From positions 1 through 64,000 of the forward strand of contig JBDGRK010000009.1 in assembly GCA_042218075.1 (NCBI GenBank): a DNA stretch of 64,000 nt, read 5' to 3'. The DNA comes from Candidatus Nanohaloarchaea archaeon. Its GTDB lineage: Archaea; Nanohalarchaeota; Nanosalinia; Nanosalinales; Nanosalinaceae. Made by a program: the position numbers and the translations under genes. Under the pieces are notes generated by a model. That model did no database searches. It was not told where the DNA came from and saw only the letters and a program-made list of their open reading frames with translations. Below are positions 8,205 through 14,801 of the stretch, in pieces. How positions within the stretch are numbered: the first letter of the stretch is position 1; each line of letters opens with the position of its first letter.

Positions 8205-9197
8205 TCAATCGAATAGAAAGTCGCATTCTTCTCTCCACCTGTTGTATCTTCGAAGAAGCCCTTCTCTCATCTCTTCTTTAATTTCCTCTTCCCAGTCCGA
8301 AGACCAGTTGGGGAATCCCCCCATCAAGACCAGAGTCGTCAGATAGTTGTAAATCCTTATCCTGTCTTCGAACTCTTTTCTTTCAAGATCGGAAACTTCT
8401 CTGTAGCCTTCACAGATCGAATCCTTCAGACTCTTTTCATCCAGATCATCTCTATCCGTCAATCTCCAGTCCACCAGCATATACTCTGCCCTCGCAAGAT
8501 CAAGCTCTCTCGGTCCAACTTTTGGATGGCTCCAGTCAAGAAATCCTGTGATTTCATTTTCATCCACCAGAATATTGTTGAATCTGTTGTCGTAGTGAAC
8601 AAGAACCGCTTCAGGATTTTTCGGAACTTCTTCTGCCAGTTTTTTTCTATCCGGAACGTGTATTTCAGGCGGATTCTCCCAGAGCCTTCCGATCTTATCT
8701 CTCAGTCCGGACATCATTCCGTGCAGTGCCCGATCCCACCTTTCCGCTCCTTCAAAAACCTTTAATTCTCCATTTTCTGCACCCAGAACTCCGTGTTTAT
8801 CGAAACTCCTTATATTGTGGATCCTGGCCAGTATCTCACCGTACTGGCGGAGTATCTCTTCAAGCTGCTTCTGGCTGATTTCTTCTTTAAAATTCTCTGC
8901 ATTTACGCCATCAATCTTCTCCATTATGTAGAAAATATTCTCCCGGTTCTCTCCTTCTAAATCGGTGTGGATTACTTCCGGTGAAGGTACATCCGTTTTA
9001 TTCGATATCAAGCTGTAGATAATCGGTTCTGACCTGAACCATTCGATCTCGTTCATTTCATTGGTGCGCTCCTTGAGGATCAACTTTTTCTCATCCGATT
9101 CAAGGAGATAAATAGTGTTAAGCCCCTCATCCAGCTCCCTCCAGTCGAAAACTTCATCCAGTCTTTCTTCCACCTTTTGCTTAAGTTTCGGTTTCAT
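8205..9197 (-). CDS. aminoglycoside/choline phosphotransferase (APH) family kinase
   Basis: LVHYDNRFNNILV and GFLDW motifs. Confidence 0.85.
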   Translation of the reverse strand: MKPKLKQKVEERLDEVFDWRELDEGLNTIYLLESDEKKLILKERTNEMNEIEWFRSEPIIYSLISNKTDVPSPEVIHTDLEGENRENIFYIMEKIDGVNAENFKEEISQKQLEEILRQYGEILARIHNIRSFDKHGVLGAENGELKVFEGAERWDRALHGMMSGLRDKIGRLWENPPEIHVPDRKKLAEEVPKNPEAVLVHYDNRFNNILVDENEITGFLDWSHPKVGPRELDLARAEYMLVDWRLTDRDDLDEKSLKDSICEGYREVSDLERKEFEDRIRIYNYLTTLVLMGGFPNWSSDWEEEIKEEMREGLLRRYNRWREECDFLFD

Positions 9198-9655
9198 AAC
9201 CGCTTCTCCATCCTGTTAACGGATATTTCCTTTCCTTCAATTTCAGATTTATCTTTTTCCACTAGATCAAATCCAAGTTTCCGGTAGAAATCTCCTGCAG
9301 AAATCGAAGCTGTAGCCTCAAGCTTCTCCAAGTCTTTCTCCCTGGCCTTTCCCTCCAACTTTTTCATAAGTCGACTGCCTACTCCCACACCCTGATTCGC
9401 GGGATTCACAAAAATTCCAGCGACTCTACCATTTTCAATATTCAATCCTGCGCATCCGAGAAGATTATTTTCATCCTCGACCACGAAGAATCGAAACTTT
9501 TCCTCCTCTGCAAACCCGGCAACCATCTCCGTTATCACACTTTCAAGATGCCTGAGTTCTTCCTCATTGTACTTCTCTTCAATACCTGATAAAGAATCCC
9601 TGATCAATTTCTCCACATGCTCTTGGTCTTCCGAATTGTATCCTCTAATTATCAT
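9194..9655 (-). CDS. GNAT acetyltransferase
   Basis: FVNPANQGVGVGSRL acetyl-CoA motif; FYRKLGF. Confidence 0.9.
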   Translation of the reverse strand: MIIRGYNSEDQEHVEKLIRDSLSGIEEKYNEEELRHLESVITEMVAGFAEEEKFRFFVVEDENNLLGCAGLNIENGRVAGIFVNPANQGVGVGSRLMKKLEGKAREKDLEKLEATASISAGDFYRKLGFDLVEKDKSEIEGKEISVNRMEKRL

Positions 9656-9668
9656 GAATTACCATAAA

Positions 9669-10082
9669 TCAAAACTCCCTCCACTTCATTACATCGAGAT
9701 CTTCAACCGGTTGGAAGTGATCCGGGTTTCCTGTCAGTAGTTCGAGATCGTTAGCTACTCCTGTAGCGGCTATGTATGTATCGTGAAGATCATCAACTTT
9801 CCTTCCTTTGTCTTTCAAATCTGGTACTATTTTTGCAGCTTTAAGACATACATTCCGATCGATTGGGAGAACTTTGAAACGAGAAATCAATTTCTCAATT
9901 TCATCTTTAGCATCGCTATATTCATCATTTCCCGAATCGTAACGGTACTCAACTCCCATAAACAGTTCAGTTACCGTAACCTGGCTTATAGCATGAGTTC
10001 CCAGCGTGTCCAGCCTCTTGATTTTTTCCGGCGAGTTACCCCTGTCAATCTCTACAACAGCGGAAGTATCAAGCAACTTCAT
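9669..10082 (-). CDS. vapC: PIN-domain VapC toxin
   Basis: MKLLDTS, TELF, DTYIAATG and LLTGNPDHF motifs; start moved to the ATG at 10082. Confidence 0.9.
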   Translation of the reverse strand: MKLLDTSAVVEIDRGNSPEKIKRLDTLGTHAISQVTVTELFMGVEYRYDSGNDEYSDAKDEIEKLISRFKVLPIDRNVCLKAAKIVPDLKDKGRKVDDLHDTYIAATGVANDLELLTGNPDHFQPVEDLDVMKWREF

Positions 10083-10296
10083 CTTCGATCCTCTCAATGC
10101 TTCCACTGCTACTCTTTCTCAAATCTTCCTTGACTTCATCTAAAGTTCCCCTAGTCAGGACGTTTGAACCTGATACATCCTTGAGTTTTCCACCTGTATC
10201 AATTTTCTCCTCTATAACCTCACTGAAACTCTTCTCACCCTTCTCCCTCTTCAACTTCTCGTAAACCTCATCTGAAATAGCAATATTCTTGCTCAT
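10069..10296 (-). CDS. vapB: VapB antitoxin (DUF217-type)
   Basis: KNIAISDEVYEKL..EK..KSFSEVI signature; overlaps vapC. Confidence 0.9.
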   Translation of the reverse strand: MSKNIAISDEVYEKLKREKGEKSFSEVIEEKIDTGGKLKDVSGSNVLTRGTLDEVKEDLRKSSSGSIERIEDEVA

Positions 10297-10470: not shown

Positions 10471-11196
10471 ATGGTTGAAAAGGTAAGGGTTTCTCAATAT
10501 GAGGAGAAAAAGCCAAACGGAAATCCTTCTGAAGAAGATTATCGGTGGCTTGAAGAAAACGATTTAATCAGGGATGGAAACACTTTAGAAACAGTTCTTG
10601 CGGCCGAAGGAGTGAAGAACGGAACCTTTATTGAGGTATTTCTTCATGATATCGATCAAGAAGATTTTCAGCAAGAATACAATGAATTTATTGAAGGACT
10701 CACTAAATTAGGCCTGAATGTGTATGTTCCAAGAGAAAATAAATCGGAAATAGCCGATTCAGAAGAATCTATGGCCATGGTAACAGCTTATGTCACCACA
10801 TGCGACTTCTATTCTGTGCGTGATTTCGAAGAAATGCCAGGAAGAGGCACGTATGAAACACCTGATTCAAGCCTCCAAAAGGCCATGTTTCTCGGCTATC
10901 CCCTAAAATCAGCTGTAGGGTACAAGAAAAGAAATATGCCAGATCAAGAGTTCGAAGATACTGTAAGGATTTCAGATAATGAGTTAGAAGAAGAACCTGA
11001 AGCAATGGAATTATTTCCGAGTAAGATCCAAAAAAGGATTCCAAGTTCTGAAGAAAGAAAAATAAATCTTATTTCATACGGCGTCTTTGGAGACGATGAT
11101 AGTATTGAAAAAGCTCTCAAATATGCCGAAGAATACTTTCAAACTATTCAGGAAGTTGATGAAAAATACAATACTTCATTCCTGAATCTAATCTAA
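10471..11196 (+). CDS. hypothetical protein (AT-richer)
   Basis: 241-aa acidic ORF containing FLGYP; no family assigned. Confidence 0.7.
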   Translation: MVEKVRVSQYEEKKPNGNPSEEDYRWLEENDLIRDGNTLETVLAAEGVKNGTFIEVFLHDIDQEDFQQEYNEFIEGLTKLGLNVYVPRENKSEIADSEESMAMVTAYVTTCDFYSVRDFEEMPGRGTYETPDSSLQKAMFLGYPLKSAVGYKKRNMPDQEFEDTVRISDNELEEEPEAMELFPSKIQKRIPSSEERKINLISYGVFGDDDSIEKALKYAEEYFQTIQEVDEKYNTSFLNLI

Positions 11197-11219
11197 ATGA
11201 CATACAAATATTAATAGAG

Positions 11220-11292
11220 TGGCAGGACCCGGATTTGAACCGGAATCTGCACCGCCCGAGGGTGCAATGATAGTCCGCTACACCATCCCGCC
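11220..11292 (-). tRNA. tRNA-Pro(CGG), no intron
   Basis: Cloverleaf GGCGGGA/TCCTGCC-A; anticodon arm GCACC-CTCGGGC-GGTGC; T-loop TTCAAAT; 73 nt; CCA not encoded. Confidence 0.92.
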
Positions 11293-11315
11293 CAAAAAAG
11301 AGTGAAAGGATAGAT

Positions 11316-12548
11316 TCAAGTCAGTTCTTCCACCACCTCCTCTGAATCGAATCTCTCTTTCTCTCCATCTCTAGTTTCTATCTCCACGGTGTCCTCCTCG
11401 ATGAAGTTCTTCCCGACAATCAATTTCCTCCTGATTCCAAGAAGATCTGAATCCCTGAACTTTTCTCCAGCCGATCTTTCTTCATCGTAGAGGATGACCT
11501 CTATCCCGGAGTCTCTGAGCTCTTGATAGATGTCTTCCGCCTTCTCCATGACTTCTTCCTCGTGTCTCGCAACTATGATAGAGGTGTCGAAAGCCGAGAC
11601 TTCTCTGTTCCATGCTATTCCTCTCTCATCGTGGTTCTGCTCGATAATGGTGGAGATCAGCCGGGAGACTCCTATGCCGTAGCAGCCCATCAGGACCTCT
11701 TGCTCAACTCCTTCCCCTGTCGTGAAGGTGAGATCCATCGAATCCTCAGCTGTGTATCGGTCTCCCAACTTGAAGCAGTGGCCTACCTCGATTCCATTGA
11801 CTTCCCGGAGATCGGAACCACATTCCCGGCACTTTCCAACTTCAAGATCTTTAGTTCCGAAACTGCATTCCCGGCTTTCACATTTGAGATAGGTGTCACT
11901 CCCGACTTCAGATTCAGCTATGAACTCGTGGCTACCGCTTCCTCCCATGTCGCCGTTGTCAGCCGAAACTTCGGAGTACTCAAGCCCAAGCCGGTCGAAG
12001 ATATTCCTGTAGACCTCCACCACTTTCTGATACTTCCTGTCGAGACCTTCTCTATCCTCATGGAAGCTGTAGGCATCCTTCATCACGAACTCTTTTCCCC
12101 GGATCAGGCCTTTCCTTGCGTGGTCGTCCCTGAACTTCCTTCCGATCTGGTAGATAGTTAGATCAAGGTCGCGGTAGCTCCGAATGTACTTTCGCACTAG
12201 TTCAACAGCTGTCTCTTCATGCGTCGCTGCGATGGTGAACTTCTTTCCTTCGCGGTTCTCAAGGCTGAAGAACTCCTCTCCCTCGAAGTTCTCCCATCTT
12301 CCTGACTTCTTCCAGATATCGCTCTTCTGGAGGATGTTCATCTTAACCTCCTGCCCGATCCGATCCATTTCATTCCTGATCACTTCCTCGATGTTTTCAA
12401 CCACTCTCAATCCAAGGTTGGTGAACCCAAACGTTCCAGAGCCGTAACTGTGGATCAATCCTGCCCTGATCGCAAGTTCTTCACTGGCGCAATCAGTATC
12501 TGCCTCAGCCTCCTTGGAAGTCGTCGCAAACAGATTACTTCTCCTCAT
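11316..12548 (-). CDS. proS: prolyl-tRNA synthetase, bacterial-type, lacking the INS editing domain
   Basis: SGRW, ATHEE, KFRD, EFVMKDAYSFH, GGSGSHEF, GIEVGHCFKLG and MGCYGIGVSR motifs; C-terminal anticodon-binding domain; 410 aa. Confidence 0.9.
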   Translation of the reverse strand: MRRSNLFATTSKEAEADTDCASEELAIRAGLIHSYGSGTFGFTNLGLRVVENIEEVIRNEMDRIGQEVKMNILQKSDIWKKSGRWENFEGEEFFSLENREGKKFTIAATHEETAVELVRKYIRSYRDLDLTIYQIGRKFRDDHARKGLIRGKEFVMKDAYSFHEDREGLDRKYQKVVEVYRNIFDRLGLEYSEVSADNGDMGGSGSHEFIAESEVGSDTYLKCESRECSFGTKDLEVGKCRECGSDLREVNGIEVGHCFKLGDRYTAEDSMDLTFTTGEGVEQEVLMGCYGIGVSRLISTIIEQNHDERGIAWNREVSAFDTSIIVARHEEEVMEKAEDIYQELRDSGIEVILYDEERSAGEKFRDSDLLGIRRKLIVGKNFIEEDTVEIETRDGEKERFDSEEVVEELT

Positions 12549-12763
12549 TCCAGATCACCCTCCAGGTATCGATCCACTATCTGCTTCAATTCCGAGAGTT
12601 CCTCCAGATCAACCTCATTTCCTTCTTCATCCAGCACAATTCCTTCATCGTATCTATCCACAATTTTGTAGAGATTGATCAGCTGGGATAGCTCCTGTCT
12701 CTGGTTAGACTCGTGGATTAACGAGTCATACCGGGAGTAAACTTCATCCAGCAGTTCCTGCAT
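12545..12763 (-). CDS. small hypothetical protein translationally coupled to proS
   Basis: MQELLDEVYSRY... (72 aa, acidic); ATGA overlap with the proS start. Confidence 0.7.
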   Translation of the reverse strand: MQELLDEVYSRYDSLIHESNQRQELSQLINLYKIVDRYDEGIVLDEEGNEVDLEELSELKQIVDRYLEGDLE

Positions 12764-13050
12764 CCTGCTACCGGAAAGAAGGTAGAGGGAATCAACGTTT
12801 TGAGTTAGATTTTGAGATTTCTGACCTGAATTGCGTGAGTGGAACGCGTCCACCCTGATTGTCGTGTGTCATGGTGTGATACACCTGAGAAAAAGAACAA
12901 TCCTCCAGTCTATCAAAGAAGCTCAGGAGGAAGGTATCCACCCTTTATTGACAGGATGGAGAAGAGTGTGAAGCAGTGGATAAAGTGGCGACTACTTGAA
13001 TCGAGAAAGTCATTCAAGATACCGAAATGGAACGCAGCCACCAGACATTG
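12764..13050 (-). promoter_or_regulatory. long structured 5' leader of the orf-proS-tRNA-Pro unit, with short uORFs and three GGTGG-N5-TTCC repeats
   Basis: Several inverted repeats; motif copies at 13029-13042, 12929-12942 and 12841-12854; uORF MSGGCVPFRYLE starts at 13048. Confidence 0.5.
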
Positions 13051-13073
13051 TAGTGATCAATAAATAACTAAAA

Positions 13074-13089
13074 CTTTATATAATTTTCG
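13074..13089 (-). promoter_or_regulatory. BRE-TATA promoter
   Basis: Minus strand CGAAAATTATATAAAG, about 26 nt upstream of the ATG at 13048. Confidence 0.65.
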
Positions 13090-13141
13090 CCAGATAATTG
13101 TTTTGCCGGATGTAACCAATTAGGAAGCAGAGATACCTCAA

Positions 13142-13648
13142 ATGAATACCGAAGAAAGAGTGGCAGCTTATGTAGATGAACACAGAGAAGTTCCAGATTA
13201 CTTAGATGATGCCATACTCGAACATATGCAGCAAGATTATGAGAGACGAGAACCTGCTGAACTCCCCACAGACTTGGAAGAAGAAGCTTTCGTGTATACT
13301 ATCGGCAGGGATTCCAATACTGTAGAGGCCCTCAAGTTTGTTGACTCTATGATGGAGCACAGCGAGTATGTGCAGGAATCGATTATAGTGCCGAAAGGGG
13401 TTTTCGCACCAGTATTCGACAGATTCCTCGGAGCAGCTATGGAAACCGTAGAAGACGAGAAAGTAATCGTCTACGATGAAGATAACGACAAAGTTCTCGG
13501 TGTCACCGATGACCAAATCGAGATAATAGGTTACACAGTCAATTACCTTGAAGAACAGGGTCTAGTCTCTGAAGGACTGATAGAAGGGTTCGATAGCAAC
13601 TTCGAGGCACTGGATATGGTAGGCCGATGGATAGAAGACGTCAGATGA
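13142..13648 (+). CDS. hypothetical protein
   Basis: 168-aa highly acidic ORF. Confidence 0.75.
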   Translation: MNTEERVAAYVDEHREVPDYLDDAILEHMQQDYERREPAELPTDLEEEAFVYTIGRDSNTVEALKFVDSMMEHSEYVQESIIVPKGVFAPVFDRFLGAAMETVEDEKVIVYDEDNDKVLGVTDDQIEIIGYTVNYLEEQGLVSEGLIEGFDSNFEALDMVGRWIEDVR

Positions 13649-13667
13649 TTTGAAGAAATCCGATTTT

Positions 13668-14801
13668 CTACCTTCGGGCCTCCACCACAATGTAGTTATC
13701 TTCCTCTTCCAGAACATTTACTTCTTCAAATATTTCTCTCAGTTGATTCTCAAAGCTCATATTTTGGTTGTAGACCAGATACAGCCTTCCGCCCTCTTTC
13801 AGCCGATTATATGATTCTTGGAATATTTCATCTGTCACTGCTTTTCCCTGGTGTGTAGGCGGGTTCGTGACAATGACATCAAACCGTTTATCTTTGTAGC
13901 AGTCGAGACAGTCGGCATTTTCTAAATTATAGAAATCAATATCGTTTCTCCGGAGATTCTTCTCTGCTAATTCTACGGATAGAGCGTCATCATCGCTGAG
14001 ATAAATATTGCAGTCGTAGAGTTTCTTCAGGAAGATACCTATAGTTCCATATCCGCAGCCTACATCCCATATCCTTTCTCCCTTCTCTATCTCTACATTT
14101 TCAATCAGTAATCTGCTTCCTTCATCCAGTTTATCAGGCGAGAAAACACCCTCTACCGCCTCAAAACTGGCTTTAACTCCTTTGACTTCTACTTCAAACT
14201 TTTTTCCGATAGCTTTCTTCTCTGGTTCTACATCTCCTTCTTTCTTGTACCTGTAGACCTGATATGAATCTCTATGATTAACCCTGCCTAACTTGCCTTC
14301 AAATTCTTGAAGCCAGTCCCTGTAGCGGTTTAAACCTTCTTTTTTACCTGAGCAGATGAAAAGTTCACCTTCATCCTTCAGTAGACCTACCGCTTCAGAA
14401 ATTCTGTTCTTCACTAAATCTATAGGGGAATAGGGTTGCGGTGCATAGATTATCTTGTCGAAATCTCCATCCAGTTCTCCAGGTGAGCTCACCTTCCTAC
14501 ATTTGACATCGTCGATTTCATTTAACTCTATATTGTGCTTAGATATTTGGTAGGCGCTATCACTGGATTCCATTAGAACCGTATTTCCTTCAGGAGCGCA
14601 GTCCCCAAGTATTCCCAGGAAACCATAGCCTGAATACAGGATTAATATATCATCATCTATTTCTGGTTCCACTGTATCTGCCAACAATAGTTCAGATTCT
14701 CGAAAACTATTCTTAGATGAAACACCATCTGAGGTCTCGAACAAATACTCCTTGCCGGTTTTCTCTGACCTTAACTTGTTCTCATACAGATACTCTTTCA
14801 T
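13668..14801 (-). CDS. RsmC/MTS-like two-domain SAM methyltransferase
   Basis: GVFSPDKLDEGS, DVGCGYG and TNPP motifs; degenerate N-terminal repeat domain. Confidence 0.85.
   Translation of the reverse strand: MKEYLYENKLRSEKTGKEYLFETSDGVSSKNSFRESELLLADTVEPEIDDDILILYSGYGFLGILGDCAPEGNTVLMESSDSAYQISKHNIELNEIDDVKCRKVSSPGELDGDFDKIIYAPQPYSPIDLVKNRISEAVGLLKDEGELFICSGKKEGLNRYRDWLQEFEGKLGRVNHRDSYQVYRYKKEGDVEPEKKAIGKKFEVEVKGVKASFEAVEGVFSPDKLDEGSRLLIENVEIEKGERIWDVGCGYGTIGIFLKKLYDCNIYLSDDDALSVELAEKNLRRNDIDFYNLENADCLDCYKDKRFDVIVTNPPTHQGKAVTDEIFQESYNRLKEGGRLYLVYNQNMSFENQLREIFEEVNVLEEEDNYIVVEARR

Follow-up and report, generated by a model that had tools for sequence, protein, structure and literature searches.

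In bacteria, genes for aminoacyl-tRNA synthetases (aaRSs) and for amino-acid metabolism are controlled by T-boxes and by leader-peptide attenuators; to our knowledge, no equivalent cis-acting amino-acid sensor has been established in archaea. Bacterial prfB carries an internal Shine-Dalgarno (SD) element and a CUU_U shift site, through which RF2 autoregulates its own synthesis, mgtP has a leader-peptide attenuator with proline codons, and the arrest peptides SecM (...RAGP) and ApdA (...RAPP) end at proline. Here we analyse a 64,000-nucleotide (nt) stretch of Candidatus Nanohaloarchaea archaeon DNA (positions 1 to 64,000 of contig JBDGRK010000009.1, hereafter the window), in which ~500 nt separate a minus-strand promoter (about 13080) from proS, the gene of a prolyl-tRNA synthetase (ProRS). 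This region is very probably a translated, proline-responsive regulatory leader, composed of short modules that each present a proline codon and are linked by overlapping +1 reading frames. It is conserved across a family of DPANN archaea, tied to proS genes of both types and to proC-proB, and its serial +1-overlapping frames run onto the start codon of the regulated gene. A preliminary description of the locus had proposed a leader responding to proline or tRNA-Pro, and this general idea stands, with the micro-ORFs (ORF, open reading frame) conserved ahead of proS and of proline-biosynthesis genes in many relatives; it missed the conserved staircase of +1 frames, which changes the likely mechanism. 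The leader appears to be undescribed in the literature searched.

Like prfB, the leader places an SD-like element a few nt 5' of a putative slippery P-site codon (CUU_U in prfB, NUU_C here), has a 0-frame A-site codon that would be slow when the regulated product is scarce, and combines an early 0-frame stop with a +1 frame leading to expression. In contrast to prfB, the slow codon is a sense proline codon and not a stop codon, two or three sites follow one another, the enzyme is not encoded by the +1 frame, which instead stops on the enzyme's start codon (coupling), the organism is archaeal, and the system is known from sequence alone. With the trpL, hisL and leuL attenuators the leader shares a short leader ORF containing codons for the relevant amino acid and helix formation tied to ribosome position, but it has a single codon per module in a fixed context and conserved overlapping +1 frames, and neither a terminator nor a supported alternative (2:3) pairing was found in the leaders compared. 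T-boxes (RF00230) likewise precede aaRS genes, respond to tRNA charging, as the leader would, and resemble it in a short GGGUGG-like string, but the leader has no Stem I/specifier or antiterminator, and its conserved features are reading frames. As in SecM and ApdA, a conserved nascent peptide (R-V in the leader) meets an incoming proline; the peptide motif differs, and arrest in the leader is conjectural. Mycobacterial cysteine-responsive short ORFs, described as a 'ribulon' (10.1101/834739), comprise a leaderless sensory ORF at the 5' end of an operon mRNA and act through translational pausing, as the leader may do, and likewise place one device before several genes of a single amino-acid pathway; they use a run of Cys codons and a duplex that hides the next ribosome-binding site (RBS), whereas the leader has a single Pro codon per module, a frame staircase and a conserved helix that does not include the next RBS. 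Strict termination-reinitiation coupling at ATGA overlaps is described for Haloferax by Huber et al. 2019 (PMC6728339), and a TGA overlaps ATG, GTG or TTG in the same manner in 27 of 31 leaders, with the difference that the upstream partner is a regulatory junk ORF here and a protein gene there. Finally, the P-site NUU followed by C and a putatively slow A-site codon recall UUU_CGU of influenza PA-X, a proven +1 site (PMC3498833).

Layout and reading frames of the leader

On the minus strand of the window, a TATA-like box, the ~500-nt leader, proS and tRNA-Pro(CGG) follow one another (Table 1). The BRE-TATA (BRE, transcription factor B recognition element) promoter placed here by the preliminary description was recovered as the TATA-like sequence ATTATATAAAG at 13074-13084, with GCGAAAA 5' of the box. 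Because its centre lies ~31 nt 5' of the ATG (13048) of the first upstream ORF (uORF1), uORF1 is predicted to be leaderless or nearly so; a TTTAAR/TTATAAA box, centred ~30 nt before the uORF1 ATG, is found in most related leaders. The three copies of GGTGGNNNNNTTCC (GGTGG-N5-TTCC) reported earlier were confirmed as the only ones in the window and all read on the minus strand; chance alone would give 0.46, and none of 100 shuffles reached three. Each copy belongs to a module with the consensus SD-like GGTGR, 4 nt, NUU, CCN, C. Module 1 comprises GGTGG, the 4-nt spacer, GTT (13033-13031), the Pro codon CCA (13030-13028) and then T, and module 3 contains GTT for valine (12845-12843), CCA for proline (12842-12840) and then C; module 2 is an extra one, found only in the window and in locus L071 among the leaders compared (L and G numbers denote loci and genomes, respectively).

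The micro-ORFs with G-G-x-(V/L)-P peptides are present as previously stated, including the AGGTG ahead of the third, and comparison showed that they are conserved at the peptide level, with synonymous change free at the Pro codon. The claim of ~290 nt lacking a long ORF did not survive, as overlapping GTG-headed frames of 42, 49 and 102 codons (ORFs b1, b2 and c) run through the region. ORF b1 reads module 2 as G-G-Y-L-P-P and ends (...KGGYLPPELL, stop) just past it; within ORF b2 lie the SD-like AGGTG and the uORF3 ATG, and module 3 is translated in it as G-G-R-V-P. In the proposed orf72-proS-tRNA-Pro unit, proS and tRNA-Pro hold, and 'orf72' (12545-12763) is no ORF of its own but the C-terminal part of ORF c. 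Neither ORF c nor orf72 matches a Pfam family. The TGA of ORF c (12547-12545) overlaps the proS ATG (12548-12546) as ATGA, and the distances between successive motifs, 100 and 88 nt, are both 1 mod 3. Among the sequencing runs listed for the locus, none is an RNA run; its sequence was confirmed by contigs of two DNA runs, and a third yielded a strain variant with a compensating +1/-1 indel in uORF1 (single contig, depth ~5). The AGGTG of uORF3 sits in a small hairpin just before the ATG (12868-12886; GGUGU/ACACC), with a counterpart in L071 (GGUGUA/UAUACC). The leader RNA (12700-13100) is pyrimidine-rich and the surrounding coding strands are purine-rich, which fits peptides that are not protein-like.

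Table 1. Features of the proS locus in the window.
Feature	Position	Strand	Source or basis
BRE/TATA-like promoter, GCGAAAA-TTATATAAAG	13074..13090	-	sequence
uORF1, MSGGCVPFRYLE then stop, frame 0 of module 1	13010..13048	-	sequence; homologous ORFs in relatives
Module 1 motif, GGTGGCTGCGTTCC	13029..13042	-	pattern match
Helix 1, GGUGGCUGC (13042-13034) pairing with GUAGUCGCC (12995-12987)	12987..13042	-	minimum-free-energy fold of the window
+1-frame ORF b1, 42 codons from GTG in motif 1	12913..13041	-	ORF list
Module 2 motif, GGTGGATACCTTCC (CTT then CCT CCT)	12929..12942	-	pattern match
+1-frame ORF b2, 49 codons from GTG in motif 2	12792..12941	-	ORF list
uORF3 (the 'uORF2' of relatives), MTHDNQGGRVPLTQFRSEISKSNSKR then stop	12792..12872	-	AGGTG 9 nt before ATG
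Module 3 motif	12841..12854	-	within hairpin 12837..12855
+1-frame ORF c, 102 codons from GTG in motif 3	12545..12853	-	ORF list
proS, 410-aa bacterial-type ProRS	11316..12548	-	Pfam; NCBIfam
tRNA-Pro (CGG)	11219..11292	-	ARAGORN; Rfam tRNA 48.1 bits

Thirty-three distinct leaders were collected, of which 31 could be analysed; L077 had too little upstream DNA, and in L044, ahead of proC-proB in G016, the junction is broken by a run of Ns flanked by duplicated sequence. Reading in three frames revealed a common layout of uORF1, uORF2 and ORF c, with two modules in most relatives and three in the window. In relatives, uORF1 has 9-17 codons (M-x-G-[GED]-x-[VI]-P...) and stops 2-10 codons past the proline, and in 26 of 28 multi-module leaders its ATG precedes the motif by exactly 6 nt. 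The +1 frame has no stop between motifs 1 and 2, a span that includes a conserved F-L-S-R-W stretch together with the uORF2 SD and ATG; at motif 2 it reads S-T-x-G-G-[RYCH]-V-P, and a stop follows 3-14 codons later. ORF c, 23-102 codons long, then leads from motif 2 to a stop at the start codon of the regulated gene.

In 31 of 31 leaders, the +1 frame is open from the gene-proximal motif to a stop that lies between -9 and +11 nt relative to the gene start (5.1 in shuffles, the probabilities of which overstate significance because the leader sequences are related); frame 0 is closed in all 31, and frame +2 is open in 14. The +1 stop overlaps the gene start by 4 nt (ATGA, GTGA or TTGA) in 27 leaders, in which the motif-to-start distances are 0 mod 3 across 18 different lengths (69-306 nt); the remaining four stops lie at -6, -9, -9 and +11 nt (the start in L143 corrected by 1 nt), and in L071 ORF c ends 11 nt inside proS. 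Adjacent motifs are 1 mod 3 apart in 30 of 30 pairs, with 12 distinct lengths. One group of leaders has a TGA near the start in two of the three frames, which weakens the argument from stop position, not that from openness. Frame 0 must be read because its ATG, peptide and Pro codon are conserved, and the +1 frames must be read because they are open and keep their mod-3 relation across indels.

Comparison also disposes of the view, raised in part earlier as a possible refutation, that the region is no regulator at all, the repeats being duplication leftovers in a decayed gene or opposite a plus-strand gene or RNA. Between 12800 and 13100, the plus strand is skewed towards purines, as coding strands of this DNA typically are, and contains a 74-codon ORF (12839-13063). 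However, the 74-aa product has no Pfam match, open stretches on the opposite strand (28-101 codons) follow no pattern among the leaders, the orientation of the leader to the downstream proline gene is kept while upstream neighbours differ, and in more than 30 loci it is the ATGs, stops and motifs of the minus strand that are conserved. The comparative data thus contradict and effectively refute this explanation, the probability of which is close to nil.

Several long forms of ORF c stand out. Those of L050, L069/70 and L075 are about 100 aa long, acidic and 26-40% identical, and those of L045, L058, L065, L066, L068, L089 and L143 contain a third, degenerate motif, GAGAAG-R-GTGCGTTCC, which lies in the 3' arm of a strong hairpin with the frame-0 stop in the loop. 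Another conserved sequence in ORF c, TCAAAAYCT, lies at 12796-12827 in the window and 25-45 nt 5' of the gene start in relatives; its reading frame differs among loci, so that the conservation is at the nucleotide level.

Codon constraints and RNA structure of the modules

Codon anatomy was counted over 41 distinct motifs retrieved with a pattern that admitted only [GA]T[TC] before the Pro codon, a limit despite which the protein-anchored loci left no module unaccounted for. The third base of the Pro codon is free (CCA 18, CCT 12, CCG 11), with the exception that CCC, 21% of Pro codons genome-wide, does not occur; CCC followed by C would introduce another Pro codon, in the +1 frame. In 38 of the 41 motifs, the Pro codon is followed by C. 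The preceding codon is GTT in 37, ATT in 3 and GTC in 1, with CTT and TTT in extra modules, although GTT accounts for only 27% of Val codons genome-wide. A frozen third base of NUU thus adjoins the freely drifting third base of the Pro codon. NUU_C is present in 40 of 41 motifs, besides the CUU and UUU variants, and may keep 2 of 3 pairs after a +1 shift; the set of decoding tRNAs is incomplete, with 12-23 tRNA genes detectable in the 92%-complete assembly. The GGTGR element is complementary to the 3' end of 16S rRNA (...GGATCACCTCC) and is separated from NUU by 4 nt in all 41 motifs, compared with 6 nt before genuine starts (GGTGA-N6). In 22 aligned leaders, the block SD-ATG...S-T-x-G-G-R-V-P is conserved, with the ATG and GGTGG invariant and the S-T-x-G-G-R-V-P peptide kept through synonymous changes of the Ser, Thr and Gly codons.

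The 313-nt leader folds better than its shuffles (z -2.57), and the hairpin arms CTTGAAT/ATTCAAG, TATCCAC/GTGGATA and TCCTCC/GGAGGA listed earlier are all present; TATCCAC (12976-12982), upstream of module 2, is able to pair with the module 2 motif. Two structures are conserved. In the window, helix 1 encloses the end of uORF1, and in relatives it is a 10-bp helix in which uORF1 codon 2 and GGUGRNU pair with AGYCRCYRR ~50 nt downstream. In an alignment of 21 relatives, to which the window sequence itself does not belong, 91.4% of helix 1 cells are paired compared with 81.2% in shuffles, and double-sided changes number 27 cells against 9.3 expected, neither value being reached by any of 500 shuffles; compensatory changes affect 5 of the 10 pairs, and slid controls pair in 23-54%. 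Helix 1, which sequesters module 1, is therefore supported by covariation. The second structure is the 7-bp hairpin of module 3, GGGUGGA-CGCGU-UCCACUC (12837..12855), to which the previously noted GTGGA/TCCAC arms belong; its homologue lies around motif 2 of relatives, and all 10 of the 10 leaders aligned retain it, mainly by G-U/G-C changes. RNAalifold applied to these 10 leaders returned only helix 1 and the 7-bp motif hairpin, without a Stem I/specifier, a terminator/antiterminator or an SD sequestrator.

These data bear on two further explanations. If the leader were an RNA-only sensor, T-box-like or otherwise binding tRNA or another ligand, GGUGG...UUCC would contact tRNA-Pro and the ORFs would be incidental. 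The sequence GGGUGGACGCG superficially resembles the T-box sequence, and the two conserved helices and the stable fold are in favour of such an RNA. Yet Rfam cmscan over window positions 11000-13800 (E<=10) and over 11 related leader loci (E<=1) found nothing significant other than tRNA, T-box RF00230 being absent from both, and conservation is lacking at the bases expected to contact the tRNA 3' end: the base before GGTG varies (T/C/G/A in 22 leaders), and in motif 2 the 'UGGA' would stand opposite A73, the discriminator base of the neighbouring tRNA-Pro, contrary to UGGN pairing. Moreover, the third base of the Pro codon is free, as in a translated codon, and the placement of ATGs and stops and the frame relations are kept across indels. 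The suggestion of a T-box-derived or tRNA-binding RNA thus finds no support, and we consider an RNA-only sensor very improbable.

Classical ribosome-mediated transcription attenuation, in which a ribosome at the uORF1 Pro codon would select between RNA structures or modulate termination at a T-run, fares somewhat better. A leader ORF with the regulatory codon is present, helix 1 (the 1:2 helix) is backed by covariation, and all leaders compared share a run of T4-T5 (GTTTTCT, or TTCTTTTTCTC in the window) in the interval from uORF1 to the helix 1 3' strand. Oligo-T is a termination signal for archaeal RNA polymerase. On the other hand, pairing of the helix 1 3' strand with motif 2 (the 2:3 alternative) is no better than in shuffles (-7.3 versus -6.3 kcal/mol, 27 leaders), no conserved terminator hairpin was found by RNAalifold in the 10 leaders, each module has a single Pro codon and not a run, and attenuation gives no reason for 31 of 31 open +1 frames or the mod-3 spacing. 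The Pro-codon attenuation put forward earlier is therefore incomplete in its classical form, with a candidate sensory uORF and a supported 1:2 helix but no supported 2:3 helix; as a whole it is improbable.

A hungry-codon frameshift model and a stalling alternative

With somewhat less than even confidence, we propose, as the best reading of these data, that a hungry Pro codon would trigger prfB-like +1 frameshifting at each module and that the last frame would couple to proS by termination-reinitiation. The mRNA would start at or just before the uORF1 ATG, and at each module the ribosome would meet the SD-like GGUGR, then 4 nt, NUU in the P site followed by C, and the Pro codon in the A site. 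With ample Pro-tRNA(Pro), the Pro codon would be read and translation would terminate a few codons on, far from proS. Under a shortage of proline or of ProRS activity, the A site would be empty, the P-site tRNA would re-pair from NUU to UUC, and the ribosome would continue in the +1 frame to the next module, where the test would be repeated. The last +1 frame (ORF c, including orf72) would end at the TGA overlapping the proS ATG, and termination-reinitiation would start proS translation there; low ProRS output would raise proS translation, as low RF2 raises prfB expression. On untranslated RNA, helix 1 and the motif hairpin would sequester the GGUG elements. Because a hungry-codon +1 shift would raise expression, the regulatory sign would be right for both proS and proC-proB, and a shift at NUU_CCN_C would account for the absent CCC, the trailing C and the NUU. 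'Hungry' A-site codons are known to promote +1 shifts, with their natural use described as unclear (PMC5009743). If the model is correct, hungry-codon shifting, so far deemed a translational error, would be harnessed as a sensor, SD-stimulated +1 recoding would extend to archaea, and the leader would constitute a compact, protein-free and portable amino-acid-responsive switch.

Several observations weigh against this model. We infer the +1 shift itself purely from the arrangement of codons and frames. Re-pairing from GUU to UUC would leave a first-position mismatch, one module has GUC, and the 23 tRNA genes detected in the 92%-complete assembly do not include tRNA-Val(GAC), valine being represented among them by UAC alone. 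In relatives, uORF2 has its own SD and ATG, so that module 1 is not strictly required. Positions 2-4 of the motif are invariantly [GA]TG, even in motifs that have lost the SD-like GG (AGTG in L066, TGTG in L143 and L065, GATG in L045), so that this triplet could itself be the start of the +1 frames. Across the broader family of cassettes described below, the +1-frame peptide V-D-A-F is at least as conserved as G-G-R-V-x; in G020 the +1 frame looks AbrB-like by eye, and in G052 it runs on as a long acidic ORF. The long forms of ORF c look like real proteins, which seems odd for the product of serial frameshifts. Codon-phase variability of ORF b (0.309/0.367/0.375) shows only weak periodicity, and synonymous changes alone are enriched, at 35% compared with 19-20% for the remaining frames, so that ORF b is under modest constraint at the peptide level. 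Finally, the role of helix 1 is unexplained in the frameshift model.

Some of these observations favour control by stalling without any frameshift, in which the uORFs would be sensory peptides (arrest-peptide-like G-G-x-V-P), separate +1 ORFs starting at the GUG or AUG of each motif would relay translation to proS, and exposure of the GUGs or of downstream RBSs would depend jointly on helix 1, the motif hairpin and a pause at the Pro codon. The invariant [GA]TG, retained in the SD-weakened variants, and the long, protein-like V-D-A-F-headed frames of G020 and G052 (the latter without a Pfam match) agree with it. The GUG lies inside helix 1 or the motif hairpin, where it would be masked unless translated through, and the helix 1 3' strand, which precedes the next SD by ~15 nt, can pair with the proS RBS region moderately better than shuffles do (-9.4 versus -6.3 kcal/mol). 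A precedent exists in stalled ribosomes on leaderless short ORFs that open RBS-sequestering duplexes, as reported in the mycobacterial study (10.1101/834739). However, a ribosome with CCN in its A site would cover the GUG 8 nt upstream, so that the start would be blocked and not favoured, and a stall on uORF1 would free an anti-SD-like strand for downstream SDs, so that a lack of proline would repress proS and proC-proB, which is the wrong sign for these genes. Nor do the motif GUGs have an SD at the usual 6-nt distance, and the absence of CCC, the C after CCN and the frozen third base of NUU are left unexplained. We regard stalling control as unlikely, albeit the main alternative; were it true, the leader would still be the first archaeal sensory-uORF regulon for an amino acid.

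Distribution of the leader and its neighbourhood

The comparison called for in the preliminary description, upstream of this proS type, found motif, structure and uORFs all kept in relatives. Among 41 genomes searched (that of the window, G000, and 40 relatives), 6 carry this proS type, G000 included, and all 6 have two conserved micro-ORFs upstream; the leader was also found 5' of bacterial-type proS in G055, G058, G061, G062, G063 and G068. A metagenome scan anchored on the ProRS protein, and hence blind to the leader, returned 80 loci. Of the 21 with at least 59% ProRS identity, 18 had usable upstream DNA, and the motif pair was present in 18 of 18; it was absent from all eight loci examined at 48% identity or less. 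L077, L067 and L081 were left out, their upstream DNA being too short. The exact pattern GGTGGRYGCGTTCC matched 32 times in 70 genomes of the phylum, and a reversed control gave no match; the 30 loci fetched comprised 12 leaders and 18 non-leaders in coding DNA of other genes, the latter encoding V-D-A-F in high-GC relatives. A sequence-only covariance model of the SD-ATG-motif region, whose weak matches include false positives such as L169 (the SD-ATG part at an ordinary gene start), located complete leaders before proC-proB in G060, before archaeal-type proS in G009 and before four more bacterial-type proS genes. Taken together with archaeal-type proS in G006 and proC-proB in G016, the leader is linked to three kinds of proline genes: bacterial-type proS, archaeal-type proS and proC-proB. 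In G060 (L154:1683-3068) and G016 (L044:1-1221, minus), the proC and proB domains (P5CR and amino-acid kinase) lie in a single frame, an apparent fusion.

Every examined copy of the cassette before proS or proC-proB has CCN, whereas copies before unrelated genes have Leu, Phe/Trp or Tyr codons at the Pro position. Leu copies (CTG/CTA) precede a family of unknown acidic proteins (~190-480 aa, no Pfam match) in G001, G004, G010, G046, G048, G053, G056 and G064; the loci are L159 and L161 (G001 and G004, of the same genus as the window) and L162, L171, L167, L170, L168 and L157. These cassettes read G-G-[RC]-V and then Leu; the stop of their +1 frame (V-D-A-F-C/Y...) falls at or close to the beginning of the acidic-protein gene, and in G001, G004, G046 and G048 the frame closes with a run of Leu codons (for example, ...IIVLILLLALLL, stop). 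Other codons at this position are TTT-TGG, TTT-TTC and GTT-TAC, in L163 (G052), L164 (G005) and L165 (G020), respectively, which read G-G-R-F-W, G-G-R-F-F-L and G-G-R-V-Y. Their +1 frame is headed by V-D-A/V-F; in G052 it continues as the long acidic ORF and in G020 as the AbrB-like frame mentioned above, and in G005 it ends in an overlap with the start of a 362-aa gene without a Pfam match. More tentatively than for the proS leader alone, we suggest that Nanohaloarchaeota may possess a modular, ribosome-only amino-acid sensor in which the A-site codon would set the specificity (Pro for proS and proC-proB, Leu and others for further genes) and two or three chained hungry-codon shifts would precede termination-reinitiation at the regulated gene. 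Such a sensor would be without precedent both as a natural case of regulation by hungry-codon frameshifting and as an archaeal cis-regulator through which aaRS genes respond to an amino acid.

The ProRS encoded in the window matches NCBIfam TIGR00409 (proS_fam_II) with 427.9 bits (cut-off 306.7). It lacks the INS editing domain and has in its place C223, C228, C240 and C243, in invariant Cys columns; the four cysteines (residues 222-243) suggest a small zinc-binding insertion. The same contig encodes a second ProRS outside the window, of archaeal type (490 aa, proS_fam_I 562 bits; G000:C40:66169-67638, L172:670-2139, minus), with a short, ordinary upstream region. Because this second ProRS lacks the leader, the proS gene of the window is the accessory, regulated copy. 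In L050 (G057:C47), where the leader and an orf72-like ORF c are also present, proS looks truncated: all that comes after them is an 81-aa anticodon-binding fragment of ProRS starting from the overlap. In L052/L006 (G015:C3), proS is split into frames of 133 and 331 aa, and more ProRS fragments lie ~6 kb upstream, so that either the gene is broken or the assembly is at fault.

The tRNA-Pro(CGG) gene of the window lies 23 nt after proS, behind a T6 run. In G023 (L003:2733-2809 / L049), ARAGORN calls a tRNA-Pro(TGG) after proS, which the Rfam scan of L049 (E<=1) does not include. Past the tRNA gene of the window, small ORFs (9194-10296) resemble, by eye, an acetyltransferase and a PIN/antitoxin pair.

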